Shown here one piece after another: positions 1,169-43,395 of a DNA stretch of 64,000 bases. The notes beneath the pieces are model-generated. The model did not search any database. It had not been told where the DNA came from and saw nothing but the letters and a program-made list of their open reading frames with translations. Origin of the DNA: Candidatus Pacearchaeota archaeon (GTDB lineage Archaea; Nanobdellota; Nanobdellia; Pacearchaeales; UBA284); the NCBI GenBank assembly GCA_038886195.1, contig JAVZYK010000001.1, positions 80,339 to 144,338 on the forward strand, in the 5' to 3' direction. The number at the start of each line of letters is the position of its first letter. The stretch's first letter is position 1. A program made the position numbers and the translations under genes.

Positions 1169-2968
1169 TTAGTCTTCATATTTATTTTTCAATATTAAAC
1201 GAGGCAATAAATGTAATGAAATGAGCTCTTCGAACAAAAGTTTTGAAGCATAAGATATTTCTACAGGCTCTAGTTTGGAATTTCCGCATAAAGGACATAT
1301 TTCTCTTTTTCTTAACTTATCTTTAATGCCAAAGCTCCCGCATTTCGGGCAGATGTTTACTATAACGTTATCTGAACTGAATCTTTCTTTTAGCAGCAAT
1401 GAAGAGCCGTGTGCAACTAATGCATCTTTTTCCATTTCTCCCAATCTTAATGCGCCTCCTTTGGCTCTGCCTTCTACCGGCTGTCTTGTTAAAAGAGTAA
1501 TTTTGCCAGAAGCTCTTGCTTGTATTTTATTTGCTACCATGTATTTCAATTTTAGATAATACATGTTGCCTACAAATATCTTGGCTTCTAAAGGTTTTCC
1601 TGTTAATCCGTCGTAAAGAGTTTCTTTTCCATCAGATCTGAAGCCCAATTCCAATAAGAATTTTTCAAGTTCTTCTATGCTTTGTTCAGAAAATGCTGTA
1701 CCATCTATATTTTCGCCTTTTAAACATCCAACTTTTCCTCCAAGAAGTTCGATAAGATAAGATACAGTCATTCTGCTTGGCAGTCCATGAGGATTGAAAA
1801 TTAAATCTGGCTTAACTCCTTGAGCTGTAAAAGGCAAGTCTTCTTCTGGTGCAATCATTCCGATTACTCCTTTCTGGCCATGCGGAGTAGCGAATTTATC
1901 CCCAAGTTCAGGAATTCTATTGTCTCTTGTCCTTACTTGTACTATTTTTCTACCTTCACCATCTATCGTTATAAAAACAGCATCAACTATGCCCTTTTCA
2001 CTCTGTCTAATAACAGTGCTGTTTTCTTTTTTGGCTCTCGCTAATGAAATTTCTTCCATTTCTAGCAAAAACTTCGGAGGAGAAACTTTGCCTATAACGA
2101 CATCTTCTTCAGAGAGTTCAGCTTCTGGATAAACAATACCGTCTTCTTCAAGATTCCTATAAACTTTTTCAGTTCTATAGCCGCTTACATCTTTTGTTGG
2201 AATGCAAATTTCATCTTTTAAATTACCAGTATAATGAAGTTCTACTGAAGTATATGGCCTAAAATAAGTGCTACGTCCCAAACCTCTTTCTATTGAAGCT
2301 TTATTTATAACTATAGCATCACTCATGTTATAACCTTCGAAAGGCATTATTGCTACCACGACATTTTGTCCGGCCGGATAGAAATTTTTAATAGTGTCAT
2401 AGACGAAACTCTTAACTATTGGTTTCTGAGGGTAATGAAGTATGCTTACATCAGTATCTATTAAGTCAAGATAGTTTGCAGCGTATAAGCCCAAAGCTTG
2501 TTTTTGTGTTTTACTACCTCTGTTAAGTCTAGAACTATGATCGTGATTGGCAAAAGGTACTAAGGCAGTGATTAAACCAAACATGGCTATTGGACTTATT
2601 TCAACATGAGTATGTTCTGGAGTTAATTCATCAGGAGTCATTGCTATTAATAAGTTGTCTTCTTCTGCAGCATCTACATACTCTATTATGCCTAGATTAA
2701 CCAAATCATCCCAGTTTAATTCTCCTTTGATTATTGCTTCTATATGCTCTTGCTTAAGCATTGACTTGCCATCTTTTGCTATAATTAGAGGTCGTAGAAC
2801 TCTGCCGCTATCCGTGGTTAAAAAAATAGTGTTTATTATTTTATCAAATCTTACACTCAATTCTTGAGGAAATTCACCGTTTCTTCTTTTTTCTCGGATT
2901 TGTTGGACAAATGTTTCAGCATTGTCTACTTCGCCTATAAATCTTCCATTATAAAATACATCAACCAT
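1169..2968 (-). CDS. rpoB1: DNA-directed RNA polymerase subunit B' (C-terminal half of split RpoB)
   Basis: 599 aa. GDKFATPHGQKGV catalytic-region motif and a C-terminal Zn ribbon (CPKCGS...CPLCGN). It follows B'' directly, which is the archaeal split rpoB arrangement. Confidence 0.92.
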   Translation of the reverse strand: MVDVFYNGRFIGEVDNAETFVQQIREKRRNGEFPQELSVRFDKIINTIFLTTDSGRVLRPLIIAKDGKSMLKQEHIEAIIKGELNWDDLVNLGIIEYVDAAEEDNLLIAMTPDELTPEHTHVEISPIAMFGLITALVPFANHDHSSRLNRGSKTQKQALGLYAANYLDLIDTDVSILHYPQKPIVKSFVYDTIKNFYPAGQNVVVAIMPFEGYNMSDAIVINKASIERGLGRSTYFRPYTSVELHYTGNLKDEICIPTKDVSGYRTEKVYRNLEEDGIVYPEAELSEEDVVIGKVSPPKFLLEMEEISLARAKKENSTVIRQSEKGIVDAVFITIDGEGRKIVQVRTRDNRIPELGDKFATPHGQKGVIGMIAPEEDLPFTAQGVKPDLIFNPHGLPSRMTVSYLIELLGGKVGCLKGENIDGTAFSEQSIEELEKFLLELGFRSDGKETLYDGLTGKPLEAKIFVGNMYYLKLKYMVANKIQARASGKITLLTRQPVEGRAKGGALRLGEMEKDALVAHGSSLLLKERFSSDNVIVNICPKCGSFGIKDKLRKREICPLCGNSKLEPVEISYASKLLFEELISLHLLPRLILKNKYED

Positions 2969-2971
2969 TTT

Positions 2972-4450
2972 TTATTTGAAAGTTTTCATTCCCATTTTTT
3001 CTAAAGCATTTATGAATTCCTTTTCTTCAAGTTTCACCGTGGTGCTTACTTTGGCTAACATAGATAAATTTTTTCTTAATCCTATGCTTGTTCCTTCTGG
3101 AGTTTCTATAGGACAAAACCTTCCATAATGGGTTGGATGCAAAGTCCTCGCTTTGAAATTTTCCTGTTCAGACGGAAGTAAGCTTACAACTCTTTGTAGT
3201 TGAGATAATACTGCTAAGCCATTTGTTTTATCCATATTCTGTGTTACTCCTGTTCTTTGTCCTATCCATGAACCGGTAGCTAATGCGCTTTCAATTCTAT
3301 GTGAGAATAAAGTTGACTTTGCAAGACTTTTGATCGAATAAAATTTTTTCTTCCTTGCAATTTTTAATAAATTGTGTTGTAAATCTCTAACAAATATAGT
3401 TAAATTCACTCTGAACAAGTCGGTTAACAAATCACCACTTAAACGAACACGTTTATTAGCATAATGGTCTTTATCGCTTTCTAGTTTTAATTCCTTAGCT
3501 ATTAGAAAATGTTTTATTAATTTACATAATGTGAGCGCTTTTTCTTTCCTGTTTTCTGGTTTTGTTCCTATATGCGATAAGAAAGTTGAGTCAAGTCTAG
3601 CTTTAACTCTATCAAGAATTTCTTTTTTCGTTCCTTCTAGTGACATTAGTTGTGCTATTGCAATCATCGCACTTTCTGAATCTTGAATTGAAGCATGTTC
3701 ATATAGATTTACTATAAGCGCTTCAGATTCCTTTCCTATAAGAGATGCAATATCAGAATCTTTTGTTATGCCCAGCGCTTTTATAACAAGAATTGCAGGA
3801 ATGTTCTTGAACCTAGAGAATGAAACATAAATGATGCCTTCTGAAGATTGATTAATTGTTATAGGAATTCTATAAGCTCCGCGGCTTGAAAAAAGTCTTA
3901 AAGCAAGTCCTTTTGGAGTTTCTTCTGTAAATGCTTGATTTTGCGCTAAATCTTCTATCATCACTAAAACTCGCTCGTTTCCATTAATTATAAAGTATCC
4001 TCCTGGATCGTTAGGATCTTCATAATTTTTAATCAATTCTTCAGAAGACATTCCATGAATATTACAATATTTGCTTTTAACCATTATCGGAATTTTTCCT
4101 ATTTCCACTGGAGTATATTCTTTATTTCCTATTCCTATTTCAAGATAGATAGGAGCGGAATATGTTATTTTTCTAAGTCTTGCTTCAATTGGCAAAATGT
4201 TGCGAATGGAACCGTCAGCTTCTACGATTTGCGGCTTACCTACGCTAATTTTTCCTAACCACAATTCTATTTCATCTTTAGGAATTTCTTCATTAATTGT
4301 ATCGATTATTTGTTGTAGTTTATTGTCTATAAAATCATTAAATGAGAGAATGTTAGATTCTATTAAAGAATGTTCTTGAAGATATTTTTTAATTAATATG
4401 TTCATCGTATCTTTTTTCTTTATTTCGTCCTTATTTTCTACATCTGTCAT
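2972..4450 (-). CDS. rpoB2: DNA-directed RNA polymerase subunit B'' (N-terminal half of split RpoB)
   Basis: 492 aa with RpoB N-terminal lobe and protrusion-like sequence. Its position between rpoH and rpoB' matches the canonical archaeal operon. Confidence 0.9.
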   Translation of the reverse strand: MTDVENKDEIKKKDTMNILIKKYLQEHSLIESNILSFNDFIDNKLQQIIDTINEEIPKDEIELWLGKISVGKPQIVEADGSIRNILPIEARLRKITYSAPIYLEIGIGNKEYTPVEIGKIPIMVKSKYCNIHGMSSEELIKNYEDPNDPGGYFIINGNERVLVMIEDLAQNQAFTEETPKGLALRLFSSRGAYRIPITINQSSEGIIYVSFSRFKNIPAILVIKALGITKDSDIASLIGKESEALIVNLYEHASIQDSESAMIAIAQLMSLEGTKKEILDRVKARLDSTFLSHIGTKPENRKEKALTLCKLIKHFLIAKELKLESDKDHYANKRVRLSGDLLTDLFRVNLTIFVRDLQHNLLKIARKKKFYSIKSLAKSTLFSHRIESALATGSWIGQRTGVTQNMDKTNGLAVLSQLQRVVSLLPSEQENFKARTLHPTHYGRFCPIETPEGTSIGLRKNLSMLAKVSTTVKLEEKEFINALEKMGMKTFK

Positions 4451-6070: not shown

Positions 6071-6165
6071 TTTACCTCCTTTTTATTTTAATATTAAATC
6101 TAGAAGACTAATCTCTTTTTAAAGTTTTTGTTTATTTTTTTCTATTATTGAGTGAATTTTAATAG

Positions 6166-6238
6166 AGCGCGGGGTGGGACTCGCACCCACGAATACTCGC
6201 TCTGCAGGCGAGCGCCGTTGCTACTGGGCCACCCGCGC
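6166..6238 (-). tRNA. tRNA-Cys (anticodon GCA)
   Basis: Hand-folded cloverleaf on the minus strand. Acceptor GCGCGGG/CCCGCGC, anticodon stem CTCGC/GCGAG with loop CTGCAGA, T-arm GTGGG-TGCGAGT-CCCAC. 73 nt with no encoded CCA. GC-rich island in an AT-rich background. Confidence 0.85.
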
Positions 6239-6302: not shown

Positions 6303-6575
6303 TTATTTGAAAGAAATTTCTTTTAAAAACTCAAGGATTTCTTGTTCTGTTTTATATTCCTTTTTGGTTCTGTTTTTAATGTATAGGGCATGATTATAGC
6401 CAATTATTAATTTAAAATCTCCTTTAAAAATTTCTATCTCTGGATTTTTGTTATATCTTAGAATAAAATTGTAACCTTTATCCAACGCTAGTATTTTTCT
6501 TCCAATTTCTTCTATTGTCATCAATGGGCTTTTAATTTTTTCTTCTATGTTTTTATTTTTTCCAACTTCAGTCAT
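6303..6575 (-). CDS. hypothetical protein
   Basis: The track ORF 6303..6617 would overlap tRNA-Arg. Starting at the internal Met (MTEVGKNK..., about 90 aa) avoids the overlap. No motif recognised. Confidence 0.35.
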   Translation of the reverse strand: MTEVGKNKNIEEKIKSPLMTIEEIGRKILALDKGYNFILRYNKNPEIEIFKGDFKLIIGYNHALYIKNRTKKEYKTEQEILEFLKEISFK

Positions 6576-6587
6576 TTTTATTTTAAA

Positions 6588-6662
6588 CGGGCCCGACAGG
6601 ATTTGAACCTGCGACATCTTGCTTAGAAGGCAAGCGCTCTATCCAGGCTGAGCTACGGGCCC
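6588..6662 (-). tRNA. tRNA-Arg (anticodon TCT)
   Basis: Minus-strand cloverleaf. Acceptor GGGCCCG/CGGGCCC, D-arm GCTC..GAGC, anticodon stem CTTGC/GCAAG with loop CTTCTAA, T-arm GCAGG-TTCAAAT-CCTGT, discriminator G. 75 nt. Confidence 0.85.
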
Positions 6663-6704
6663 ATAATATCTATAAGTATTACAAATTTATAAAGTTTTAG
6701 AAAA

Positions 6705-7394
6705 TTATTTGTTATCTTCAACTGCTTTTTTAATATTCTCTAAAAAAGCATTTTTACAAATTTTACTAAATGCCACTACTTTATTTTTTCCATGCTCTTT
6801 TGCATATCTTAATGCAATATTTGCTTTTTCAAAAAGAGTTTGTTCGTTACTCTTTTCTTTGTTTTTTGGCATAAATCTCTCATAAAGGCTTTTTATTTCT
6901 ACATTTTCTTTTTCTAAAGGTTTGTTTTGAGCCACCCCTATACTAACAGTAACACCATAGTTAAATAAAAATTTGTCCGCCATAATTAAATTACGAAGTC
7001 GTTCGGCCATCTTTTCTGCTTCTTCTTCTTTAGTTTCGGGCATAAGTACTACAAATTCTTCTCCACCGAAACGAGCCGCAATATCTGTTTCACGAATGTT
7101 GCTTTTTATTATAGTAGCAACAAGTTGTAAAATTTCATCGCCTCGAAGATAGCCGTAATTGTCATTTATTTTTTTAAAATCATCTATATCTATAATGATT
7201 AATGAAAGAATTCTACCGTAGCGTTCAGAAATTGCTAGCTCATGTTTAAACTCAGAACTAAAATATCTGTAATTGTAAAGCTGCGTTTTTGTGTCTACAG
7301 TTGCTAGATAGTATAGTTTTGCTATTTTTTGTGCGTCCAATGTTATTTCTTTTTTGTCACTGTTTTGTCCAAGAATTTTTTTAAGCCAATCCAT
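6705..7394 (-). CDS. GGDEF-domain protein (putative diguanylate cyclase, GGEEF variant), no sensor domain
   Basis: 229 aa with the full GGDEF signature set: YNYRYF (the DxLTGLxNRR region), IIIDIDDFKKINDNYGYLRGDEIL, RFGGEEFVV, SIGVA, ALRYAKEHGKNKV. Confidence 0.75.
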   Translation of the reverse strand: MDWLKKILGQNSDKKEITLDAQKIAKLYYLATVDTKTQLYNYRYFSSEFKHELAISERYGRILSLIIIDIDDFKKINDNYGYLRGDEILQLVATIIKSNIRETDIAARFGGEEFVVLMPETKEEEAEKMAERLRNLIMADKFLFNYGVTVSIGVAQNKPLEKENVEIKSLYERFMPKNKEKSNEQTLFEKANIALRYAKEHGKNKVVAFSKICKNAFLENIKKAVEDNK

Positions 7395-7451
7395 TTTTTA
7401 TATATTGTAATTATAAATTATATTTAAAAATCTAACTATTCTCGTCATATT

Positions 7452-8219
7452 ATGATAGATTGTCATTGTCATTTAGAACAAAAGGATTATGATAAAGATC
7501 GCGAACGAATAATAGAACAGTGCAAGCAAAAGCTCAAGGCTTTAGTAACTTGCGCAGCACATCCTAGAGACATTACATTGACATTAGAATTAGTTAAAAA
7601 ATATAAAGGGTTTGTTTTTTGTTCTGTAGGAATACATCCTGAATACATTAAAGAAATCTCAGAAAAAGAAATTAATAAAACAATTAAAGAAATTGAGGAA
7701 AATAAACGAGAGATTTCTGCAATAGGTGAGATAGGTTTAGATTATTATTGGATTAAAGAGCCAGAGTGGAGAGAAAAACAAAAAGAATTGTTTAGGAAAA
7801 TGATTGTTCTAGCTAAAAGATTAAATTTGCCTTTAATAATTCATAGCAGAGATGCAACAGAAGACGCAATAAAAATTTTAGAACAAGAAGGGATGAAAAA
7901 TAAAAGGGTTTTAATGCATATGTTTAATGATCGAAAATTTCTTCAAAGAGTTATTGACAATGATTGGTTCATTTCAATTGGTCCTGGAATAAAAAAATCA
8001 AAAGATATAAAGAAAATCGCAAGAGACACGCCTTTATCAAAGATAATGCTCGAAACAGATTCGCCTTGGTTTGCACAAGAAGGACAGAAATATGGAATGC
8101 CATTGAATGTTAAAATCGCTTGTGAGAAAATTGCCGAAATTAAACACATCTCGATAGAAGAAGTTGAAAAGCAAACAGATTTAAATGCTATTGAGTTTTT
8201 TAATCTTGGGATAAAATGA
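7452..8219 (+). CDS. tatD: TatD-family metal-dependent hydrolase/DNase
   Basis: 255 aa. N-terminal IDCHCHL metal-binding motif, then MHMFNDR and LETDSPW motifs typical of the TatD fold. Confidence 0.8.
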   Translation: MIDCHCHLEQKDYDKDRERIIEQCKQKLKALVTCAAHPRDITLTLELVKKYKGFVFCSVGIHPEYIKEISEKEINKTIKEIEENKREISAIGEIGLDYYWIKEPEWREKQKELFRKMIVLAKRLNLPLIIHSRDATEDAIKILEQEGMKNKRVLMHMFNDRKFLQRVIDNDWFISIGPGIKKSKDIKKIARDTPLSKIMLETDSPWFAQEGQKYGMPLNVKIACEKIAEIKHISIEEVEKQTDLNAIEFFNLGIK

Positions 8220-8476
8220 ATATATTAACAATTATATTAGTGATCATTATTGCTTTGTTAGGCTATCCAACAGGGCTATTAATTGCGAAATTTACAGAAG
8301 AAGAACTTCACACAGGAAGAAAATGGTTTAAGTTGATCATTGTTGTATGTATTTTAGCAATAATTGTTTCGATTTTCATTGCTAAAGCCGAAACTTTGCT
8401 TTTTTTGATTTCAAGTTTTATTTTCATCTTGCTAGTGGCCCTAGCATCTTTAATTAAATCGAGGAAAAAGAAGTAA
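8216..8476 (+). CDS. small membrane protein (2 TM), unknown function
   Basis: 86 aa. Its start overlaps the tatD stop by 4 nt (ATGA-type coupling), and its stop abuts the dph5 start. Strongly hydrophobic with a C-terminal KKK. Confidence 0.4.
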   Translation: MNILTIILVIIIALLGYPTGLLIAKFTEEELHTGRKWFKLIIVVCILAIIVSIFIAKAETLLFLISSFIFILLVALASLIKSRKKK

Positions 8477-8477
8477 A

Positions 8478-9200
8478 ATGCTATATCTCATTGGCCTTGG
8501 ACTTGATTTGAAAGATATCTCATTAAAAGGAATGGAAGCAATAAAAAAATGCCACAAGATTTATTTAGAAATTTACACAACTTTGTTGCCTTACAAAAAA
8601 GCAGCTTTAGAAAAGATTATCGGGAAGAAAGTCATTATAGCTATGCGCGAGGATGTTGAGAATAAAGGAAAAGAATTTGTAAAAGAAGCCCAGAAGAAAA
8701 ATGTCGCACTATTAGTTTATGGCGATCCTCTGGCTGCGACAACACACATCTCGTTACTTCAAGAGGCAAAGAAACTAAAAGTGCCAGTTAAAGTTTTACA
8801 CAATAGCTCAATTTTTAATGCAATCAGCGAAACTGGCTTACATCTTTACAAGTTCGGTAAAACCGCCTCGATTCCAGAATGGCATAAAGGCTATGAACCG
8901 GTTTCTTTTTTTAATGTAGTTAAGGAAAATTTAAGCATTAATGCACATACTTTGTTACTTGTTGATATTGGGTTAAGTTTTGAAAAAGCATTGTATGAGT
9001 TGGAAAAAGCCTCGAGAGGCATGATTGATAATATAATTGTTTGCTCGAGGCTCGGAACAGATGAACAATATATAGTTTATAGCACATTGAAAGAGTTATT
9101 GAAAAATAAAAAGATTCAAGCAAAAGTCAAAGAACCTTTTTGTTTCATTGTTCCTGCTTCGTTGCACTTTACAGAAGCCGAGTTTTTAGAGTTGTTTTGA
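8478..9200 (+). CDS. dph5: diphthine synthase (diphthamide biosynthesis methyltransferase)
   Basis: 240 aa. N-terminal MLYLIGLGL...DI(S/T)LKG...IYLE, the tetrapyrrole-methylase-fold signature of archaeal/eukaryotic Dph5. Consistent with an aEF-2-containing archaeon. Confidence 0.85.
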   Translation: MLYLIGLGLDLKDISLKGMEAIKKCHKIYLEIYTTLLPYKKAALEKIIGKKVIIAMREDVENKGKEFVKEAQKKNVALLVYGDPLAATTHISLLQEAKKLKVPVKVLHNSSIFNAISETGLHLYKFGKTASIPEWHKGYEPVSFFNVVKENLSINAHTLLLVDIGLSFEKALYELEKASRGMIDNIIVCSRLGTDEQYIVYSTLKELLKNKKIQAKVKEPFCFIVPASLHFTEAEFLELF

Positions 9201-9207
9201 ATTGAAT

Positions 9208-9972
9208 TTAAATTTTAATTTCTAATGCTAACCCAAAAATGTTTGTAACATCTTTTCCAGAGGGCCATTTCTGTTCATTATAGAATTCTAATGCTCCAGT
9301 TCTTTTTTTATTTGTAATGCCCAAACCAAGCTTTATGTTTTCATCAAGTTTTTGTCCTATTTGAGTTAGATTTAAGTTTATTAAAGGTTTATAAGAAAAA
9401 TAAAATTGTTTAAAGAATTTATAAAATTCTAACTTCATTCCAGTTTCATAATTTATGTCATAATTCCTTGGATTAATTATTTTTCCAATATAAATCTGCC
9501 AGCAATTTTGAAATTGAGAAAAGGGGTTTTTAGTTAGGGTAATTTTTTCTAAATTATAAGATTTTATTTCAGCTTCGTTTTTATTATCAACTAAATGCTG
9601 GCACCAGTGTTGGTGTGAAATTGATAATTCTATATTTTTACCAAGGGAGTGGCTTAAAGAAGCATTCCATTTGTAGAATTCATATTTCGGAGAATGAGAA
9701 GCGTAAAATGAAGCGAAAGGATTTACTTCTTTCATTAAAGTCCCTTTGGAACAATTAAAATTAAATGAAATGCCTTTGTATTTTAAAAGTTGAGATTCAA
9801 GTCCAAGTTCGACGGTTCTGTCTGTGTTCGTTATGTCTGTTATCTTCTGAATGATGATGCCTGAATTGAAATTGAATTTTGCTTTTGGCAACAACTCCAG
9901 AGAACTTGAAGTATTTAAAGAATTAGCAATTATTAAAGAAGCAAGTGAAGCGACTAAAGGAATGATTGACAT
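9208..9972 (-). CDS. secreted hypothetical protein (Sec-type signal peptide)
   Basis: 254 aa. N-terminal hydrophobic signal (MSIIPLVASLASLIIANSLN). Rich in N/K/F/Y, with no catalytic motif recognised. Confidence 0.45.
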   Translation of the reverse strand: MSIIPLVASLASLIIANSLNTSSSLELLPKAKFNFNSGIIIQKITDITNTDRTVELGLESQLLKYKGISFNFNCSKGTLMKEVNPFASFYASHSPKYEFYKWNASLSHSLGKNIELSISHQHWCQHLVDNKNEAEIKSYNLEKITLTKNPFSQFQNCWQIYIGKIINPRNYDINYETGMKLEFYKFFKQFYFSYKPLINLNLTQIGQKLDENIKLGLGITNKKRTGALEFYNEQKWPSGKDVTNIFGLALEIKI

Positions 9973-10093: not shown

Positions 10094-10166
10094 TAGGTAT
10101 AAAAAATACCTAAAAATAGGTAAAATATTTAAAATAAAAAGATTTAAATACCTAAAAATAGGTAAA
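10094..10166. promoter_or_regulatory. repeated palindromic operator-like elements upstream of the HEPN/MNT pair
   Basis: Half-sites TAGGTA(10094-99), TACCTA(10107-12)-AAAA-TAGGTA(10117-22), TACCTA(10149-54)-AAAA-TAGGTA(10159-64). The 20-nt unit AATACCTAAAAATAGGTAAA occurs twice, at 10105-10124 and 10147-10166, 42 bp apart. The second copy ends 6 bp before the ATG at 10172. Confidence 0.6.
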
Positions 10167-10171: not shown

Positions 10172-10705
10172 ATGAAAAGAGACGCTGAGAGCACATTTCT
10201 CGAATTATTAAAAATAAAAGCAATAGTTAAACTAACTGATATAGAAAGAGAAGACTATTTAAGATTTTTTGAGTCTACTTATAAAGATAATCTAGAAACT
10301 GCCATAGATAATTTAAGAAAACACCCTAGATGGAGTATTATCTCGGGCTATTATGCAATGCATGATTTGGCCAAGTTATTTCTTGCTAAAAAATATAGTT
10401 TAAAGATTGTCGATAGAGTGCATTTTGCAACTATTATTGCCTTGTCTAGCGTCTTGAAAGAAAATGAACAACAAATATCAGAAGCGATAGCTCTATTAAA
10501 AAAAGCAAAAGAAATTTTTGATGAAAATATTATTGGCATTAAACCAACAGAATTAGTTTCTTATTTAAGAAAGGGGAAAAGTGAAAGAGAAAAGGCCCAA
10601 TACTATCATCCAAAAATAGATTTAAAGGAAATTTCTGAAAAAGCTTCGTACTTTCTTGATGGCGTTGTTAAACCTTTTATTAAACTAATGGAGAAAATAA
10701 TATAG
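10172..10705 (+). CDS. putative HEPN-domain protein (toxin-like partner of the adjacent nucleotidyltransferase)
   Basis: 177 aa, predicted all-helical. C-terminal R-x6-H (SEREKAQYYH) fits the HEPN Rx4-6H motif. Directly upstream of a minimal nucleotidyltransferase gene and directly downstream of a repeated palindrome. Confidence 0.45.
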   Translation: MKRDAESTFLELLKIKAIVKLTDIEREDYLRFFESTYKDNLETAIDNLRKHPRWSIISGYYAMHDLAKLFLAKKYSLKIVDRVHFATIIALSSVLKENEQQISEAIALLKKAKEIFDENIIGIKPTELVSYLRKGKSEREKAQYYHPKIDLKEISEKASYFLDGVVKPFIKLMEKII

Positions 10706-10743: not shown

Positions 10744-11313
10744 ATGTTAAGTACAATTTTATCATCAAAGTCAAATTTCAAAGTTTTAAAACTATTCTCT
10801 CTTGCACCAGGCAAACCATTAACAAGAAAGACAATTAAAGAATTTACAAAATTGCCCAATGTTTCTTTAGATATGGCTTTAAATAAATTAATTAAAGAAG
10901 AAATTTTAGAAGAAGAAAAAAGGCTTTTAAAATTAAATTTATCTAATGAAAAAACGATAGCAATTCTTGAACTACTAAAAAAAGAATCAAAAATGTTAAG
11001 GGAGATTCCTTACAAGATATGGTTGCTTTTATTTGATTTTACAATGGCGGCACAAAAAACAAGATTTAAGAAAGCATTTTTATTTGGCTCGTGGGCAAAA
11101 CACATTGCTAGAGAAGATTCTGATGTTGATATAGCATTAATAATAGAAAAAAAAGACATAAAACAAGAAATGCTTGTTGAAAAATTGGCTGAACACTTAG
11201 AAGATAAATACAAAAGAAAGATCCAGCTGCATTTTTTTGAAGAAGAACAATTCAAAAAAGCCAGAACCACTTTAGCAAAAGAGATACAAAAAGAAGCAAT
11301 TGAGATTTTTTAG
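10744..11313 (+). CDS. nucleotidyltransferase (MNT/Pol-beta superfamily) with N-terminal winged-helix domain
   Basis: 189 aa. LFGSWAKHIAREDSDVDIALI is the hG[GS]x9-13Dh[DE]h minimal nucleotidyltransferase signature. The N-terminal about 90 aa look like a wHTH. Confidence 0.65.
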   Translation: MLSTILSSKSNFKVLKLFSLAPGKPLTRKTIKEFTKLPNVSLDMALNKLIKEEILEEEKRLLKLNLSNEKTIAILELLKKESKMLREIPYKIWLLLFDFTMAAQKTRFKKAFLFGSWAKHIAREDSDVDIALIIEKKDIKQEMLVEKLAEHLEDKYKRKIQLHFFEEEQFKKARTTLAKEIQKEAIEIF

Positions 11314-11406: not shown

Positions 11407-12819
11407 ATGGTGAAAAGAGGAGCGTTGTTATTAGCTGGCATTATAATCTTCTTTATTTTTGCAAGCTCATTAACATCTGCAGCAAGTTGTTATTGTGATT
11501 CTTGTGCAGATTGTACAAGTAAATTGAATAATTCTTCTTGCACAGAAGTAAAATTAACAGCAAACATAATAAACTTTGTAGGCACTTGCATTGATAATCC
11601 TGCAGGTTTCAATAACAAAGTGTTTGATTGCCAAGGATATAAAATAGATGGAGATGATCTGAGATATAATTATGGAATTTACTTAAATGGCAAGCAAAAC
11701 AATACAATAAAAAATTGTGTAATTACTGACTTTTATGTTGGAATTTATTTATGGTTTTCATGGGAAAACACCCTAACAAACAACACTGCAAGCTCAAATA
11801 ATTTTGGAATTTATTTATATTATTCATCAGACAACGAGATAACAAATGCAAATGTAAGAGAAAATGAGGAGATTGGAATTGTGTTATCCTCTACTAATAA
11901 TACTAAAATTAAAAATTGTATAATTAAAGGAAATCCTTGCGATAAGTGTATATTTGTCAAAGGAAGTGGGGCGCGTCATAACTATATTACTAAAACTGAA
12001 ATTCATTCTTGTGCAACAGGAATTTTAATTTATGATTATGGTATAGGTTCTTATGCTAGTTTAACAGTTAATCAAAGCTATATTCACGACAATACTGACC
12101 AAGGCATTAGGATTTATGGCGGTAATGAAATGGGTTTAGTTTTAATAGATAGCGTAATAACTGCCAACGGAAAAGGAGTGTATTTGGATCATCGATGGGG
12201 AGCACATAAAGATCCTAAAGGATTTCTTTACAATTCCACAATCTGTAATAATACACTTGATTTGCAAATAGATACTAAAGATAATTATGATAAAGATTGT
12301 GCTGGAAGCTATGCTAAGACAATTGGTGGCACTAACGCTAATTGTCCTAATCTTAATAATTTTTGTCCAACCTTTCCTTCTTCAGGTTGTGTTTGGCAAG
12401 GAGTTTGTTCAAGATACGTACCGGCAAAAGGTGCTTCTAGCACTTTTGAATTCCCTAACATAAATTTTTGTCCTGCAATTCCAGACGAGTGCAAAAATCA
12501 ATCACCGGATCACATTGTTTGCCGCAATAACGAGGCTTATAATTGTCAGGGTTGCGGCGGATGGTATCGTGATGTTAGTTTAGATTATATATGTAAACCA
12601 AATTATTGTTTAGGGAACTATTCGACGGGATGGGTAAAATATAGAAATCATGAGAATTGCACTTCAATTAACGATTTTTATTCGGGCTGTGTAATTGACA
12701 TTACTGGAGATGGGATTTATGATAAACTTTGTTGTCCTGTTTATGATAGTCTAAATTACAATATAGCTTTGTTTGAGCCAACATCTGATATGTACTCCTT
12801 TTGTCGAAGTGTAAAATGA
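11407..12819 (+). CDS. secreted cysteine-rich protein with right-handed parallel beta-helix (PbH1/NosD-like) repeats
   Basis: 470 aa. The N-terminus MVKRGALLLAGIIIFFIFA could be either a Sec or a class III signal peptide (KRG|A). Repeated NNxxGIYL and NxIxNC rungs, many Cys. Paralogous to the partial ORF at 62904..64000 (shared DC[QN]GYKI[DQ]GDD...KNC[VI] block). Confidence 0.65.
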   Translation: MVKRGALLLAGIIIFFIFASSLTSAASCYCDSCADCTSKLNNSSCTEVKLTANIINFVGTCIDNPAGFNNKVFDCQGYKIDGDDLRYNYGIYLNGKQNNTIKNCVITDFYVGIYLWFSWENTLTNNTASSNNFGIYLYYSSDNEITNANVRENEEIGIVLSSTNNTKIKNCIIKGNPCDKCIFVKGSGARHNYITKTEIHSCATGILIYDYGIGSYASLTVNQSYIHDNTDQGIRIYGGNEMGLVLIDSVITANGKGVYLDHRWGAHKDPKGFLYNSTICNNTLDLQIDTKDNYDKDCAGSYAKTIGGTNANCPNLNNFCPTFPSSGCVWQGVCSRYVPAKGASSTFEFPNINFCPAIPDECKNQSPDHIVCRNNEAYNCQGCGGWYRDVSLDYICKPNYCLGNYSTGWVKYRNHENCTSINDFYSGCVIDITGDGIYDKLCCPVYDSLNYNIALFEPTSDMYSFCRSVK

Positions 12820-15800
12820 GAAATATGAAAAAAATAAAAATAGAGAGAAAAATAAAAACAGAGGAATTATTTATGCTAACTTTTTTCGTGATAGCTTTTT
12901 TATTTGTCTCTTCGTTTTCAAAAGCCAATGGACTACTACACTGTACTGGTTGGGGTTTTCGGAATATTACAAATTATTGGGGCTGTTGTAATGGTAGTCA
13001 TTTTGATGGCACTAAAGGAATAGCGATGCCTTATGTGATGCAACAAACAGTTTTTTACAGCTACCATTGTTGTGGAGATAATGATGGCGTTTGTCCAGAA
13101 GATTTTAATAGCTCGCATGCTGGCGGGCGTATAAGTTGTGCTCCTAATGGAGACCCTGATTGTGGCTCGCTGCCGCTCCAATGCAACCTAACTTCTGCGA
13201 CGATAACTCCGAACTGTAGGGGCATTCCTGGGAACACTCAGGGATGTGATGTTGGAGATAATATAACTGTGACAGCGACCTTTGCGGGAAATTGTCAGGA
13301 AGTTAAGGCTCTTGAAACTAAGATTAAAGATACAAATTGTGAATTGTCTTTAGAAATTCCTTGCACAGTTAGTAGCAGTGGAAGCTGTAGTGGCGTTGCT
13401 ACTATTCGAGTAGTGCCAGATGGTTGTGAAAATAAAATAGTATATTTAAGAAATGCGACTGCATGGAATGAAACTCTTGCCGGTGCAGGACAAGTGAGGA
13501 TGGTTGTTACTTATAACGACACCCAACAACATCTTAACGGAGGTTTCAAGTTCTCTGAAAAAATTTTAAAGTTTATTGATTTGATTATATGGCCGCCGAG
13601 CGCGCTGATCCAAGTTGGAAACTTGTTTGAATGGAACTTGACAGCAGTGTTTTTCAATCAAACGAGCGGTGAGAATGTCACAAAGTATGTTGCAAATGAC
13701 GACCCTTACTCGCAGTTTTTTTATTCTAATCCGAATGTCGCGCATCATCCTGGCTCGCCTTATCCTAACAGAATCTCCAAAGGATTCTCTGCAGGCGAAA
13801 CCAATGTTGTAGGAACGTGGCCATGGCCTTGGAATTACAAACAAGACACTGCCCTATTAAAAGTTATCAATCCAACAGGTTGTGTCATATCTTTAGCAGC
13901 AATAATACCTTACTGCAGGCCTGGCGGCTGTAATGTTAGCGACAAGATCAATTTGAATGTAAAAGTCAATAGCCCTAGCTGTGATCCTGATTCAAATCCT
14001 TCAAGAATAGTTATGAAAGGACATGATTCTTCGCTTTTGTGCAATGTGGAGCTGAGTGTTGATGGAATCTATTGCGATGGCCTTGGCAACTGCAACAAAA
14101 ATTATACTATAAATTCAATTTCTGATGATTGTGCTGGCAAGACTGTCATGATTAAAGTGACTGAACTTTATAATGCAACCGGTCCTTTAGCGAGCTTGCA
14201 GGGCAACTTCGGCTCATTTCAGTTTTGGGCGCCGGCGCCTGAAGAACCGAGCTATATTACATTATGGCCTAGAGATTGGCATGCTAAAGTTGGCGATAGT
14301 GTTTCTTATGACGTTTGGGCCCATTATCCTACCAATCCTCCTAAAAATGTAACAACTGATGAATATACAAATTATAGTTCGAGCAATAACGTGGTTGCTT
14401 ATCAAATTAGTCCTAAAAACGTGTTTTATGGCAACAGTACTGGCACTACAACAATAACTGCAAGATATCCTAAAGGCTATAATTATGCTAAAGAAAATAG
14501 CACTTCACTTTATGTTTATCCTCATACTGATTGCGAGATTTTGGATGCTAATATGAGTTTTAATTGTGATGATAGTATTGGCGGCATTCCTCAATGTAAT
14601 AATGGCGACACAATTGATTTAGGAGTTGTTGTTAATCAACAATGTTATAATTTGAATATTGCAAAAATACAAATGAGAGCTCATGAAAAGTTTAATCAAG
14701 CAAATCATGGCTCTTGCAGTTTTGATATGAATGCGAGCTTTACTCAACAAGCCTGTTCCTATAATGATGGAAATTATTTCTGCCATGGAACATGGACTGT
14801 TGGAGTTCCTCCAAGTTGTCAAGGTAAAAACGTTATTGTTGATGGAGTTATAGTTTATAATTATTCAGGTAATTTTTTAGATTCAAGACAAGGCTATATA
14901 GGAAACTTTAGTTTTGTTGAAACGCCTCAGTCATTAAGAGCGATTATTGTTACTCCAAATGAAGGCGCAACATTTAATCTCTCTGAAAACCCTGTTGCTA
15001 ATTTTACACAAGCAAGCATTGGCCAGATAACTAATTGGACATGGCTTTATAGAAAGATAACAATTCCACAATCACCTTGGACAGTTCTTAGATCAACTTC
15101 AAACCCGAATGAAGCAAACATAACTAATTACGATTTTAGTTATTATGGTTGGAAAGGGGGCAATTATGATATAAACTTGACTGTTAGCAATTTAAGCTTA
15201 AGTGATGATGATATTGTTGAGATAACTTTAATTGACAACTATACGCCAATTGCCAATATAACTCGACCTTTGTGGCATGTCATACTTTATAACAATAGCG
15301 TAGTTTTTGATTCTGAATGCTTTGATCCTAACAATAATCCTTTAAACGTTACATGGTATTTTGATGATAATACTAATGTTAGCGGTCCTTATTTACAATT
15401 CAAAAATGTAACTCATATTTTTGGCCAAGCAAAACCCAATTTCTTTAGAGCATGGCTTAATGTGACTGATGGTCAAAATTCGTCAGTAGATTATGTTGAA
15501 TTTAAAATAGCTTATTGTTATCATAACAACAATTATTATTTTGCAGGTTCTTGTATTGGGCAAAATAATTTGTATTGTAATAAGAATGATTGTAATGAAT
15601 TTGGTGAATGCAATGTTGTTGCTGATTGTAGAAAATGTAATAACTGTCCAAGCAGCTATTATTGTGATGGGATGACTGGCAATTGTAGTCAAGGACCAGG
15701 ACCACAAGGCTGTCAACAATATGATCAGCAACAGTGTAACGCTCAGATAGGTTGTTATTGGGACGCTTGTAAAGCTTGTAATGATCCACAAAAACCAATT

Positions 15801-16292
15801 CGCTCTTGTTCTGATTATACTAGACCAAGTGCTTGTAATAATGACAGTACTAATTGTCAAGTAGGAATGCCTAATCATGGTTTAGGAACAGAAATTTGTG
15901 ATACATTGATTGAAACTCCTCCTGGAAGTGGCAATTATTCTTTAGTTAATAATTGTCACTGTGAATGGAATTCAAATATTAATAATTGTACTTTAGCTTA
16001 TACTTTAATTCCACAAAACCAAAATGGCGGAGGCCAGCCGCAACCAGAAGATTGCCAGTATCAAATAATAGCAGAAGATTGTGGAAGCTGTCAAGTTAGT
16101 GGAAGGGAGGGAAGAAATGTTAGTTACAAAAGAGTTTTTGGCGATCCTAATGTTTGTGTTGATCGTTCATGGTGTCAGCCTTGTGGCTTGTTGTTCAGAC
16201 CATTACCATTCTTTGAATGGTGGCAAGCCATTGTTGTAGTTGGATTGGTTGTTGTAGTTTATGCCTTTATGCTTAGAAGAAAATATTTATAA
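12816..16292 (+). CDS. giant cysteine-rich surface protein (about 1158 aa) with N-terminal signal peptide and C-terminal TM anchor
   Basis: The track start at 12801 is a TTG. ATG at 12816 overlaps the upstream stop (ATGA), with a further ATG at 12825. Signal peptide LFMLTFFVIAFLFVSSFSKANG, more than 70 Cys, many N-x-S/T sequons. The C-terminal WWQAIVVVGLVVVVYAFMLRRKYL is a single TM with a short basic tail. No enzymatic motif. Confidence 0.7.
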   Translation: MRNMKKIKIERKIKTEELFMLTFFVIAFLFVSSFSKANGLLHCTGWGFRNITNYWGCCNGSHFDGTKGIAMPYVMQQTVFYSYHCCGDNDGVCPEDFNSSHAGGRISCAPNGDPDCGSLPLQCNLTSATITPNCRGIPGNTQGCDVGDNITVTATFAGNCQEVKALETKIKDTNCELSLEIPCTVSSSGSCSGVATIRVVPDGCENKIVYLRNATAWNETLAGAGQVRMVVTYNDTQQHLNGGFKFSEKILKFIDLIIWPPSALIQVGNLFEWNLTAVFFNQTSGENVTKYVANDDPYSQFFYSNPNVAHHPGSPYPNRISKGFSAGETNVVGTWPWPWNYKQDTALLKVINPTGCVISLAAIIPYCRPGGCNVSDKINLNVKVNSPSCDPDSNPSRIVMKGHDSSLLCNVELSVDGIYCDGLGNCNKNYTINSISDDCAGKTVMIKVTELYNATGPLASLQGNFGSFQFWAPAPEEPSYITLWPRDWHAKVGDSVSYDVWAHYPTNPPKNVTTDEYTNYSSSNNVVAYQISPKNVFYGNSTGTTTITARYPKGYNYAKENSTSLYVYPHTDCEILDANMSFNCDDSIGGIPQCNNGDTIDLGVVVNQQCYNLNIAKIQMRAHEKFNQANHGSCSFDMNASFTQQACSYNDGNYFCHGTWTVGVPPSCQGKNVIVDGVIVYNYSGNFLDSRQGYIGNFSFVETPQSLRAIIVTPNEGATFNLSENPVANFTQASIGQITNWTWLYRKITIPQSPWTVLRSTSNPNEANITNYDFSYYGWKGGNYDINLTVSNLSLSDDDIVEITLIDNYTPIANITRPLWHVILYNNSVVFDSECFDPNNNPLNVTWYFDDNTNVSGPYLQFKNVTHIFGQAKPNFFRAWLNVTDGQNSSVDYVEFKIAYCYHNNNYYFAGSCIGQNNLYCNKNDCNEFGECNVVADCRKCNNCPSSYYCDGMTGNCSQGPGPQGCQQYDQQQCNAQIGCYWDACKACNDPQKPIRSCSDYTRPSACNNDSTNCQVGMPNHGLGTEICDTLIETPPGSGNYSLVNNCHCEWNSNINNCTLAYTLIPQNQNGGGQPQPEDCQYQIIAEDCGSCQVSGREGRNVSYKRVFGDPNVCVDRSWCQPCGLLFRPLPFFEWWQAIVVVGLVVVVYAFMLRRKYL

Positions 16293-16344
16293 AAAAGACT
16301 AACTTGACTGGGTAAAAAGAGGTTAATTAAAAACGAGAAAAAAA

Positions 16345-19095
16345 ATGAAAAGAAAAGAGACAAGTATGGCAATGGCAGCAATTGTGCTGTCACTTTTTAT
16401 TTTATTGTTTTCATTTAGCTTTAGTTCTGCAACTGTTACGCCAGGAACGCCATTTTTTAATTTATCTCAAACAAGTTTTGGGCCAGGGCAAGTTATTGAA
16501 GGTTTCTTAAATTTTTCTTTAACCGATCATCCTGGCAATACAATTGTTAGAGCAACTATAAATCCTGGAGCTGTGACAAAAGAAACTACTCTTTTGAATT
16601 TCTTGAAAAATGCAACCGTGACTTTCAATTGTAATCCAACCGACTGTAATATAACTTATAATGCAACTAATGCTGGAACAACAAAAACAATATCTTTAAG
16701 TCAAGAAACTGAAGCTTATTATAGTTTGGTCGCTTTTGGTTCGAATGTTCAAGTTCAGAATTTAAGTTTTACAATGCAAGGTTCTAGCAATGCGCAGCCT
16801 GTTTGTTATGAAACTCCTTTTAAAGTTGATTTGCTTGATGATGGTATTATTGATTTTGAATATAAGGAAGTTTCGGGCTATTGTCCTCAGCGTGCGAGTA
16901 ATTGTTTTGATCCCAGTGTGGCAACACAAGTTGGTTTGTTAAGCACTACGCCTTCCTGTCAGAAAATATGGCTCAACAAGACTGGTAAGGTTAATGTTAG
17001 TGCTGTGTTAAAGCGAGAGGGCGAGCCTCAAAACCACGATATTGAATTTTTAATTTATGATTCTAATGGATTATTAAAAGGTAGCTGCAGTGTTAGTGGC
17101 TGGGAAGTTCAAGAAAATTTTGCTCCTGTAAGCTGTATTATAGGCGAAGATGAATACGGACAGCCAACCGGTTTTTATATTAGTAAAGCAGATAATTATT
17201 TTGTCTGTGTTAAGGCCTTAGGCAATATTTATTCAATAAAAAAGGAATCTCAAGGAGAGATTTGTGGTTTTTATGGTAATCCGCCTTCATCTGTTTTTAC
17301 AGAAGATTATGCAATTTATGTTTCAGAAGGTAAGTTTGCACCTTTCAATGGCGAGGCTTTTTTCAATGAAACTACAGCAATAGGAACACAAAATTTAATT
17401 GCCGCAATTCAAAGCTATCTTCAAACAAAATATAGCAATAATTGTTCTAGTGGTTGTGTAATTCCAATGAGATTTATTTCATTAGCAAGCCAACAAGTTA
17501 CACTTAATAATTTAAATTTTATTTATGCTCCAGGCCCTGGGCAAAGCGGTACAATCGACCATTATTTTTATGATCTAACTGTTGTTCCGCCCAAACTTAA
17601 TATGACTCAACAACTGGTTCAATTGCGAGCATTAAATACTACTGCACCACAACAACAAGGAAGCTATAGCATTAGTGTAATGATCATTGGCGGGCCTTCA
17701 GGGTCAGCGACTTTTAGAGTTGAGCCGGTTCCTCAAGTTCATAGCGTTTATCCTTTAACAGTTATTCCAGGTCAATCAACAACGTTCCATGTTGTAGCAA
17801 CAGCTCCTGCTGGAAGACAAATTGTAAGTTACATTTGGAATTGGGGTGATGGGTCTGGTGAAATAACTACTACTGAGCCAACTGCTTCACACATTTATAA
17901 TCAAGGAAGCTATACTTTAACTGTGAAAGTCCAAGATAATGCTTCGCTTGTCGGAAGCAAAAGTTTCACTATTGTTGCCAATATAACAAAGGAATTGTTA
18001 AACACAACGATAAATTCATTACTCGCTCGAGTTAATGCAATAACTTTACAGTTCAATGCTTTAGAGCCATGGTATAGAGACGCATTGGGTTTAAACTTAT
18101 CAAATATTAATTCAACTTTGCTAACTTTCAAAACACAATTGTCAACAGCAACTCAAACACAATTGGCCTCGATGTTTGAAACAGTTAATCAATACAAGAA
18201 TCAAGTTCCTTTAAATATAACTGACTCGTTGATCTTGAGAGAGTCGCCTTATTTCGTAAACTTAGAAAATATAAATCCTCAGTATATTTCTGAAATCACT
18301 GATGAAACTTATAGCTCGAACTTGGAAGAGCAATATAAAAATACCATTGTTTTATGGCAAGAAGAAAATTTAGACTTAACTCTTAGCGGTCAAATCAAAA
18401 CATTTGTTTATGAAACAACTTCTGAAGACAAGTTAACTGTTGTTAATATAAAACTTGCTCCTAAGACAAGTTTAAACGAAGTTTATCTTGTTTTCTCTTT
18501 GCCGAGTGGCGTTAGTTATAGTAATGTTAAAATTAAGCAAGGAAATTTTGAAACAAGCGACTTGAATGATGCGATTGGCTTTACATTTTCGGATTTAAGC
18601 TCGAGTGAAACTATAAGTTTGGCATTGCCAGGCAAGCACGATTTTTCACAATTAACATTTTATGCTTCTCCAAAGCTTGCAGAATTGAAAGTTGAAAGTG
18701 GCACGATTATGCCTGGAAAAGAAAAAAAGGCGCCTTGGGGTTTGGCTATATTTTTAATGATTGTGATCGTTTTGGTTGTCATTGCTGTTTTGTGGTTTTT
18801 ATGGCGTGGTTACAGTGAAAAGCTTGAAAAAAAATTGTTTAAGAGCCCTATGGATTTATATAATTTAATGAGTTTTATTTCAGGAGCTAAGGCAAAAGGT
18901 TTGAGAAAAGATGAAATTGAAGAACAACTTTTGAAAGCAGGATGGAATAAACAACAAATTAATTACGCATGGAAAAAATTAGAAAAGCAAGAAAAAGCAA
19001 AAGGCAAGAAGGGAAAAGAAAGAGAGATTCGACCATTGGGCGTGGGCGAAGAAGTTTTTCCTTATAAAAGCATTTACAAAAGAATTAAGCACTAG
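16345..19095 (+). CDS. large secreted/surface protein (916 aa) with C-terminal TM anchor and cytoplasmic tail
   Basis: Sec-type signal peptide (MAMAAIVLSLFILLFSFSFSSA). Thr/Ser/Asn-rich with many sequons. C-terminal TM LAIFLMIVIVLVVIAVLWFLW followed by an approximately 90 aa K/E-rich tail. Confidence 0.7.
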   Translation: MKRKETSMAMAAIVLSLFILLFSFSFSSATVTPGTPFFNLSQTSFGPGQVIEGFLNFSLTDHPGNTIVRATINPGAVTKETTLLNFLKNATVTFNCNPTDCNITYNATNAGTTKTISLSQETEAYYSLVAFGSNVQVQNLSFTMQGSSNAQPVCYETPFKVDLLDDGIIDFEYKEVSGYCPQRASNCFDPSVATQVGLLSTTPSCQKIWLNKTGKVNVSAVLKREGEPQNHDIEFLIYDSNGLLKGSCSVSGWEVQENFAPVSCIIGEDEYGQPTGFYISKADNYFVCVKALGNIYSIKKESQGEICGFYGNPPSSVFTEDYAIYVSEGKFAPFNGEAFFNETTAIGTQNLIAAIQSYLQTKYSNNCSSGCVIPMRFISLASQQVTLNNLNFIYAPGPGQSGTIDHYFYDLTVVPPKLNMTQQLVQLRALNTTAPQQQGSYSISVMIIGGPSGSATFRVEPVPQVHSVYPLTVIPGQSTTFHVVATAPAGRQIVSYIWNWGDGSGEITTTEPTASHIYNQGSYTLTVKVQDNASLVGSKSFTIVANITKELLNTTINSLLARVNAITLQFNALEPWYRDALGLNLSNINSTLLTFKTQLSTATQTQLASMFETVNQYKNQVPLNITDSLILRESPYFVNLENINPQYISEITDETYSSNLEEQYKNTIVLWQEENLDLTLSGQIKTFVYETTSEDKLTVVNIKLAPKTSLNEVYLVFSLPSGVSYSNVKIKQGNFETSDLNDAIGFTFSDLSSSETISLALPGKHDFSQLTFYASPKLAELKVESGTIMPGKEKKAPWGLAIFLMIVIVLVVIAVLWFLWRGYSEKLEKKLFKSPMDLYNLMSFISGAKAKGLRKDEIEEQLLKAGWNKQQINYAWKKLEKQEKAKGKKGKEREIRPLGVGEEVFPYKSIYKRIKH

Positions 19096-21436: not shown

Positions 21437-21505
21437 GTTTTTTTAAAGTTATTAAGCTTTAAAAAACTTTTTAAATATCAAAAGCTTGGGATATTGACGA
21501 AAAAA

Positions 21506-22303: not shown

Positions 22304-22336
22304 AATGAAAAATAAAAAAAAGAAAAAGAAAACAAC

Positions 22337-26798: not shown

Positions 26799-26800
26799 AA

Positions 26801-27187: not shown

Positions 27188-27219
27188 AAAAGAGAAAAGA
27201 ATAAATACTATGAATTTTT

Positions 27220-37847: not shown

Positions 37848-37902
37848 TTTTTTTTTTAAGAAAGAAATAAAATTTATAACTTTTAATATTTTTCTATATT
37901 CT

Positions 37903-43374: not shown

Positions 43375-43395
43375 TTTTGATTCTTTATTTAATTT

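Follow-up and report, generated by a model that had tools for sequence, protein, structure and literature searches.

A probable stand-alone diguanylate cyclase gene native to Pacearchaeota

The occurrence of cyclic di-GMP (c-di-GMP) signalling in archaea has been in question, and so has that of the GGDEF domain of diguanylate cyclases. A 2018 census recognized a single archaeal GGDEF domain, in Methanocella arvoryzae (CAJ37382), and queried others as contamination (PMC5847659). More than 300 BLAST matches, many from Asgard and DPANN archaea, were mentioned in passing in a 2021 paper (PMC8646023), a 2022 essay held that the presence of GGDEF in archaea 'needs to be confirmed in archaeal contigs' (PMC10086821), and a 2023 review stated that no description of c-di-GMP in archaea exists (PMC10249747). 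Our literature search found nothing that links c-di-GMP with Pacearchaeota, and among the papers retrieved a single one mentioned DPANN archaea together with c-di-GMP, in passing. Here we describe a GGDEF gene in a 64,000-nucleotide stretch of a Candidatus Pacearchaeota contig (JAVZYK010000001.1, positions 80,339 to 144,338; hereafter the window, with positions counted from its first letter). The domain assignment, the conserved residues, the predicted fold, the archaeal surroundings, the synteny and the structure of its clade argue that it is probably a genuine, vertically inherited gene of these DPANN archaea for a minimal diguanylate cyclase without a sensor domain.

Domain content, active site and predicted product

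The gene encodes a protein of 229 amino acids (aa) that scores well above the cut-offs of two GGDEF profiles: PF00990 matches residues 31-167 with E 3.2e-39 and 134.7 bits (cut-off 23.8), and TIGR00254 matches with E 7.3e-43 and 146.2 bits (cut-off 37.4). Its translation contains IDIDDFKKINDNYGYLRGDEIL, RFGGEEF, SIGVA and AKEHGKNKV, and by sequence it matches 51 solved GGDEF structures in the PDB. An earlier interpretation made from the letters alone (the sequence-only reading) had quoted these motifs and described a stand-alone GGDEF gene devoid of sensor, receiver and membrane domains; the open reading frame (ORF), the translation and the profile scores bear this out. No second Pfam domain was found in the protein and no membrane segment either, the peak 19-residue Kyte-Doolittle hydropathy being 1.26. 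The predicted protein is soluble, lacks a sensor and stands alone.

The AlphaFold2 (AF2) model has a mean predicted local distance difference test score (pLDDT) of 84.6, and in its core most blocks of 10 residues average more than 90; it displays the ferredoxin-like palm of solved diguanylate cyclases. A Foldseek search of the PDB with this model matched WspR, the Marinobacter protein 3ign, DgcB and PleD at E values of about 1e-16, with template modelling (TM) scores of up to 0.87; TM scores to 3ign, 6tts and 5euh are 0.8-0.87. GenBank holds the identical protein (P0001 in our set; accessions MEM4152588.1 and MEM4215281.1) on a 620,194-bp contig under the label 'GGDEF domain-containing protein [Candidatus Pacearchaeota archaeon]'. 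It is an undescribed member of a known enzyme family, labelled so far only by automatic annotation. In all sequence and fold features it is a conventional, textbook GGDEF cyclase, for which catalysis is predicted.

The window protein was aligned with a GGDEF fragment of PleD that was checked against PDB entries 2wb4 and 1w25 and matches residues 292-454 of 2wb4. The alignment is gap-free through the catalytic core and places every PleD residue for metal, guanine and phosphate binding, as well as those of the primary and secondary inhibitory sites (I-sites), on a counterpart in the window protein (Table 1). In an alignment of 32 relatives of 41-100% identity, all of these residues are invariant except K203, which stands for an arginine of PleD and is nearly invariant. 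The pattern RxxD-x3-4-R[FYW]GG[DE]EF is kept in 115 of 122 sequences, comprising Pacearchaeota family members and the nearest bacterial matches. The sequence-only reading had found the RxxD I-site 'not obvious' and had allowed that key catalytic residues might prove missing on careful alignment; the first is present and invariant, and the second are all matched, with lysine for R446 of PleD.

The invariance of every catalytic residue across deep divergence points to selection on catalysis. An alternative is that the protein serves chiefly as a c-di-GMP receptor or adaptor through its I-site, for instance sensing the c-di-GMP of a bacterial partner, rather than as a synthase. The intact I-site, the absent sensory domain and the short dimerisation stalk would suit such a role, and one paper describes bacterial GGDEF proteins with an I-site that act as receptors (PMC7996900). 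However, receptor-type GGDEF domains are usually degenerate at the active site, whereas here the catalytic residues have been kept throughout, and we consider the receptor role unlikely.

The nature of the product was also in question. The best PDB match by sequence is 6d9m, a GGDEF domain from Geobacter (E 1.7e-27), which we take to be a Hypr enzyme, that is, one making 3',3'-cyclic GMP-AMP (cGAMP). The identity as a Hypr cGAMP synthase raised by this match was ruled out: 6d9m has a serine at the position of PleD D344 ('GHLVGSQVL'), whereas the window protein (D86) and 32 of 32 aligned relatives have an aspartate. Because this specificity residue is the aspartate and not the serine of Hypr enzymes, the expected product, judged from the alignment, is c-di-GMP, and the invariant I-site, which accommodates intercalated c-di-GMP, makes sense only for that product. 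A product other than c-di-GMP (cGAMP as in Hypr enzymes, c-di-AMP or a linear molecule), or an activity that is mainly that of a nucleoside triphosphatase, could be argued from the top rank of 6d9m, from the lack of canonical c-di-GMP partners in the window and from an insertion unique to the family. With both N77 and D86 conserved in all 32 aligned relatives, this explanation, part of which the sequence-only reading had also raised, is improbable.

From residue-by-residue identity with PleD/WspR-type enzymes we infer how catalysis, feedback inhibition, regulation and output would proceed. Two GGDEF domains, each loaded with one GTP-Mg2+, would meet in antiparallel orientation and yield c-di-GMP and two pyrophosphates. 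The metal would be held by D69 and E112/E113, the guanine read by N77 and D86, and the phosphates held by K74, R108, K199 and K203. The c-di-GMP formed would bind back at the I-site (R101xxD104 together with R132), switching the enzyme off and capping the c-di-GMP level.

Archaeal context, synteny and family of the gene

In the NCBI taxonomy, Pacearchaeota are placed in Archaea; Nanobdellati, the group usually called DPANN. The gene content of the window is archaeal: it includes RpoA', a split RpoB (599 and 492 aa), RpoH, two TrmB regulators, a Dph5-like TP_methylase, a thermosome subunit, EF-2, the ribosomal proteins S28e, S12 and S7, Kae1, OapB and OapC, ArgRS and IleRS. The contig is archaeal on both sides of the GGDEF gene, as had been assumed when the gene was first noted. 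The gene itself stands between RpoH/RpoB and the Dph5-like gene, flanked by tatD within 60 bp and by an archaeal tRNA within 45 bp.

The literature warns that archaeal GGDEF matches may be contamination (PMC5847659, PMC10086821), and a chimeric contig would have undone the sequence-only reading. That a bacterial fragment was joined to an archaeal contig during assembly or binning is nevertheless extremely unlikely in the present case: archaeal genes lie immediately around the GGDEF gene, base composition is even across the window, with a uniformly low GC content, and the same junctions recur in independent NCBI, Logan, ENA and JGI assemblies, including CP061211.1. With at least six independent assemblies, a mis-assembly of the tatD-GGDEF junction is unlikely. 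The GC content of the gene is 0.304, against 0.325 +/- 0.034 for the 42 genes of the window, and its GC content at third codon positions (GC3) is 0.204, against 0.234 +/- 0.044; both are within one standard deviation.

The arrangement around the gene is conserved in relatives whose GGDEF proteins differ widely. Locus context was available for relatives with 65% protein identity (CP061211.1 of 710,724 bp at NCBI, which we take to be a finished genome, and a Logan assembly), 67% (a metagenome-assembled genome at NCBI, on a 192-kb contig), 48% (NCBI and ENA) and 41% (JGI), and every relative examined has the gene at this site. It is adjacent and divergent to tatD in loci L001, L002, L003, L085/L086 and L088, and the pair formed by a small membrane protein of the 86-aa type and a Dph5-like protein lies beside it in L001, L003, L085 and L088. 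A tRNA-Arg(TCT) follows the 3' end of the gene in the 67% (L003) and 41% (L088) relatives, and a tRNA-Cys lies downstream in the 65% and 67% relatives (L001, L002 and L003). The surroundings of these loci are likewise archaeal, with genes for RpoH, split RpoB, TrmB, a thermosome subunit and TFIIE-alpha.

The sequence-only reading had placed the gene between a tRNA pair and tatD, and the tRNA-Arg, the tRNA-Cys and tatD are located as it stated. It had further seen in this a typical tRNA-adjacent insertion position and had suggested that the gene may be a horizontally acquired bacterial one. A recent import from bacteria in a tRNA-linked island would fit the two adjoining tRNA genes and the mostly bacterial distribution of GGDEF, a domain with 474,357 representatives, of which those listed are nearly all long multi-domain proteins. 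It would also fit the tyrosine integrase gene that L003 carries just beyond its tRNA-Cys. However, the GGDEF gene lies 5' of tRNA-Arg, whereas in L003 the island is found past the 3' end of tRNA-Cys; relatives with as little as 41% protein identity retain the order tatD, GGDEF, tRNA-Arg; the gene matches the window in GC and GC3; and the nearest bacterial proteins are only about 40-45% identical, against an archaeal family of about 40 clusters. No tRNA-derived direct repeats of the attachment-site (att) type flank the gene, and the Pfam scan detected no integrase within the GGDEF block of the window. Conserved position, native composition, lack of att repeats and location 5' of tRNA-Arg thus rule out a tRNA-linked genomic island, and a recent import is very unlikely. 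Because the arrangement is conserved to 41% identity, any bacterial origin must be old and date back to the ancestor of these Pacearchaeota or earlier. Such an origin in the deep past is likely, since GGDEF is overwhelmingly bacterial.

In L003, the integrase gene follows tRNA-Cys directly and is accompanied by phosphatase and methylase genes (7232-8525 of that locus). The tRNA pair serves there as an integration site, and the island excludes the GGDEF gene.

A search covering 5.8 billion proteins recovered about 40 clusters of stand-alone GGDEF proteins of 225-250 aa that share 41-87% identity with the window protein, and all those with an organism name are from Pacearchaeota. Bacterial multi-domain proteins (GAF-, FHA- and REC-GGDEF) start lower, at about 40-45% identity. 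At 50% identity the family collapses to 2-4 clusters among about 474,000 GGDEF representatives. In a neighbour-joining (NJ) tree of the domain core, the members bearing the insertion are monophyletic in 116 of 200 bootstraps; together with a shorter group that lacks the insertion they form a clade (158 of 200) apart from the nearest bacterial sequences. Two further short GGDEF proteins, P0059 and P0077, were excluded from the archaeal family because their contexts are bacterial or ambiguous (alanine racemase, IS1595 transposase).

The shorter group is large. A search with its member P0041 returned at least 118 clusters of stand-alone GGDEF proteins of about 196 aa, with at least 68% identity, named as Pacearchaeota, Nanoarchaeota or Nanoarchaeia (P0041, P0123-P0240) and including a protein from Pacearchaeota archaeon RBG_19FT_COMBO_34_9. 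The GG[DE]EF motif is present in 118 of 118 and the RxxD motif in 117 of 118. The loci of this sister family, including L091 and L092, are archaeal and lie a few genes from the same pair of Dph5 and small-membrane-protein genes, with a D-aminoacyl-tRNA deacylase or ASCH gene in place of tatD. This suggests that the window gene and the 196-aa family are positionally orthologous, and the simplest reading is that one ancestral Pacearchaeota locus diversified into two subfamilies. The sequence-only reading held that GGDEF domains are essentially absent from archaea; this was a fair account of the literature to 2023 and is outdated, for this lineage, by the two families found here in Pacearchaeota and Nanoarchaeia.

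Several observations weigh against a native gene for an active cyclase. By codon-usage distance the gene comes 37th among 42 genes of the window (0.18 against a median of 0.13), a weak signal for so short a gene. Monophyly has moderate bootstrap support, in a tree whose bacterial sample is confined to the closest matches of the query. In front of the domain, the stalk helix is short for a catalytic dimer (residues 21-32, about 12 residues). The Pfam scan of all non-overlapping window ORFs of at least 60 aa detected no EAL, HD-GYP/HD or PilZ domain, in agreement with the sequence-only reading; the window covers about a tenth of a genome of about 0.6 Mb. The gene tables of the related Pacearchaeota loci, with their Pfam annotations, list none of EAL, HD-GYP and PilZ. 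Regular-expression scanning of the window ORFs yielded no MshEN-like or PilZ-like motif, and Rfam found only two tRNAs and no c-di-GMP riboswitch in the window. Finally, c-di-GMP has never been detected in any archaeon (PMC10249747).

Control, possible outputs and neighbouring genes

Three parts of the protein are specific to its family. The N-terminal peptide is amphipathic (hydrophobic moment 1.98 for MDWLKKILG). The insertion, located between the strand SIGVA and the last catalytic helix, bears a conserved K-S-x-Y-x-x-F-M-P-K motif; it corresponds to a 20-residue gap opposite PleD, reaches 40-45 residues in P0032-P0037, is present in P0001-P0037 and is absent from P0038, P0040, P0041, P0044, P0047 and P0048. 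It is modelled with low confidence (pLDDT below 50 at residues 163-168 and 176-182). The C-terminal helix carries the pattern SK-x-SFLE-x-IEK, which is conserved in close family members and absent from the 196-aa sister group. Given a stalk of only about 12 residues and the absence of a sensor domain, these three parts are candidates for dimerisation, localisation or control by a partner. For want of a sensor, the likely means of control would be expression from the promoter region that the gene shares with tatD, inhibition by the product, and oligomerisation or the binding of partners via the three parts.

The alignment of five orthologous intergenic regions between the GGDEF gene and tatD reveals a conserved TTA(G/A)AT(T/A)TTTAAA element at 7423-7435, about 27 nt before the ATG of the GGDEF gene and about 20 nt before that of tatD. 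Its position suggests a putative archaeal TATA-type promoter for near-leaderless transcripts. A scan for sigma-70 promoters and intrinsic terminators gave results no better than shuffled background, sigma-70 being the wrong model for archaea.

The window also contains genes that c-di-GMP could act upon. A cluster at 41180-46438 encodes a multi-pass GT2 glycosyltransferase (41180-42457) followed, at 42529-46438, by two T2SSF-like membrane proteins and a T2SSE-type secretion or pilus ATPase (44852-46438), in which no MshEN-like motif was found; a second GT2 glycosyltransferase lies at 37711-38961. Such pilus or secretion and glycosyltransferase machines are classic c-di-GMP targets in bacteria, and an episymbiotic lifestyle is generally inferred for DPANN archaea. 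Giant cysteine-rich proteins with signal peptides (470-1236 aa), bearing NosD/beta-helix and PKD domains, are encoded at 11407-26047 and 62904-64000, and two of them have no Pfam match at all (19085-21436 and 22337-26047); these are presumably surface or adhesion proteins. Our best guess, by analogy with bacteria, is that c-di-GMP may govern surface or adhesion functions, for example through the pilus-type ATPase and T2SSF genes or the GT2 glycosyltransferases. More tentatively, c-di-GMP signalling could be an ancestral core trait of Pacearchaeales, with a single sensor-less cyclase and with receptors and degraders unrelated to PilZ, EAL and HD-GYP, perhaps serving host attachment or as a cross-domain signal to a bacterial partner; we regard this as possible though doubtful.

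A different role, as the signal-generating cyclase of an anti-virus defence system in the manner of the Cas10 Palm domain or the cyclases of cyclic-oligonucleotide-based anti-phage signalling (CBASS), is suggested by a match of TatD to the PADLOC model QatD (E 1.7e-29) and by a pair of HEPN-like and MNT nucleotidyltransferase genes 3 kb away. It is highly improbable: the GGDEF protein matches no PADLOC model, QatA, QatB, QatC, Cas and effector genes are not adjacent, and from genome to genome the locus stays the same instead of varying. TatD proteins form a housekeeping family, and the match to QatD is a family resemblance only. A functional link of TatD to pGpG or c-di-GMP turnover, for which synteny is the sole argument, was likewise rejected; the sister-family locus has no tatD.

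Other genes near the GGDEF gene were recorded. The TP_methylase-family gene beyond tatD probably encodes a Dph5-type diphthine synthase. Between the two tRNA genes, a 104-aa ORF (6303-6617) has tRNA-Arg sequence as its first 14 or so codons and probably starts at the ATG at 6575, giving a 90-aa ORF (6303-6575) with no Pfam match. Its likeness to the ORF at the counterpart position of L003 is marginal (31%, E 0.017), and it was not taken as a partner of the GGDEF protein. A 254-aa ORF (9208-9972) has no Pfam or PADLOC match; L003 has an unannotated 252-aa gene (2307-3065) in a comparable position beside its Dph5-like gene. An exact 21-nt direct repeat, AAATACCTAAAAATAGGTAAA, occurs at 10104-10124 and 10146-10166, each copy being an inverted repeat, just upstream of a 177-aa ORF (10172-10705, no Pfam match) that is followed by an MNT-type nucleotidyltransferase gene (10744-11313). 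The positional counterparts of the 177-aa ORF in L003 and L085 are HEPN/HepT proteins, and L001, L003 and L085 keep the pair next to their Dph5-like gene; the repeat looks like the operator of a toxin-antitoxin pair.

Farther away, genes for a GTPase (MMR_HSR1), OapB and OapC stand in a row at 26160-27600, hinting at a nearby replication origin, and the GC-skew trend changes sign at about 32 kb. A 138-aa ORF (55416-55832), with an HhH-GPD glycosylase gene on one side and a DUF167 gene on the other, matches PF18894, 'Putative phage metallopeptidase' (E 3.5e-22).

Table 1. Features of the GGDEF locus, with residues numbered in the window protein and, after the equals sign, in PleD; positions refer to the window except for the sister-family genes, which carry those of their own loci
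Feature	Position	Strand	Basis
GGDEF diguanylate cyclase gene, stand-alone, 229 aa	6705..7394	-	ORF (ATG start, stop codon 6705-6707), Pfam, TIGR00254
GGDEF catalytic domain, residues ~26-208	6771..7319	-	AF2, Foldseek, alignment to PleD 292-454
N-terminal amphipathic peptide MDWLKKILGQ	7365..7394	-	conserved in P0001-P0030; AF2 helix 2-7
Subfamily insertion, residues ~158-186	6837..6923	-	alignments, AF2
C-terminal extra helix, residues 209-229	6708..6770	-	AF2 helix 209-228
D69 = D327, metal binding			alignment to PleD
K74 = K332, phosphate binding			alignment to PleD
N77, D86 = N335, D344, guanine recognition			alignment to PleD
R108 = R366, residue before active-site motif			alignment to PleD
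Active-site hairpin G110-G111-E112-E113-F114 = 368-372	7053..7067	-	sequence, alignment
K199 = K442, phosphate binding			alignment to PleD
K203 = R446 (Lys for Arg), phosphate binding			alignment to PleD
Primary I-site R101-E-T-D104 = R359-A-I-D362	7083..7094	-	alignment to PleD
Secondary I-site residue R132 = R390	6999-7001	-	alignment to PleD
tRNA-Arg(TCT), directly downstream of the GGDEF gene	6587-6663	-	ARAGORN, Rfam
tRNA-Cys(GCA)	6165-6238	-	ARAGORN, Rfam
Divergent GGDEF/tatD intergenic region, 57 bp	7395..7451	.	alignment of five orthologous intergenic regions
tatD, TatD-family metal-dependent nuclease, divergent neighbour	7452-8219	+	Pfam TatD_DNase, E 1e-68
86-aa membrane protein and TP_methylase-family gene	8216..9200	+	Pfam TP_methylase, E 9e-22
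196-aa sister-family genes	L087 1789-2382; L091 7001-7597; L092 7001-7603

Significance and likeness to known systems

The locus confirms, for one lineage, that an archaeal GGDEF gene is genuinely archaeal. An intact cyclase domain with its I-site has been kept among archaeal core genes, at the same position over deep divergence, in genomes of about 0.6-0.7 Mb where dispensable genes rarely stay. This amounts to good evidence, at the genomic level, for c-di-GMP production in one DPANN order, and at least one archaeal group probably has c-di-GMP signalling; were it an ancestral trait of Pacearchaeales, it would count as the first bona fide system of this kind in Archaea. Whether any archaea use c-di-GMP becomes directly testable, with a named enzyme. 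Because none of the bacterial receptors is visible nearby, the locus points to new kinds of receptors. The advance concerns phyletic distribution and evolution, not mechanism, since the enzyme is conventional and already labelled automatically in GenBank: an ordinary enzyme in an unusual host lineage.

Among archaeal proteins, the GGDEF domain of M. arvoryzae CAJ37382 is comparable by description only, and its host is a methanogen and not a member of DPANN. The 196-aa family of Pacearchaeota and Nanoarchaeia is much closer, with the same lineage, active site, I-site and neighbouring cluster of Dph5 and small-membrane-protein genes; it differs in lacking the insertion and the C-terminal helix, in having another N-terminus and in comprising many more clusters.

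Among bacterial proteins, the Hypr-GGDEF domain 6d9m has the same fold and differs from the window protein at the specificity residue. The minimal GGDEF proteins of bacteria (Marinobacter 3ign; 4urs/4urg, which we take to be Thermotoga tDGC) are similar in size and share the short N-terminal helix and the I-site, and 3ign aligns with the window protein at TM 0.87 and 34% identity, but they lack the KSxYxxFMPK insertion and the C-terminal helix. The PleD/WspR/DgcB-type cyclases share the fold, the metal-, guanine- and phosphate-binding and GG(D/E)EF residues, and both the RxxD primary and the R390-type secondary I-site residues. Unlike them, the window protein has no REC or coiled-coil input domain and belongs to an archaeal host; relative to PleD it adds the 20-residue insertion before the last catalytic helix and the C-terminal helix, and it carries a lysine in place of R446.

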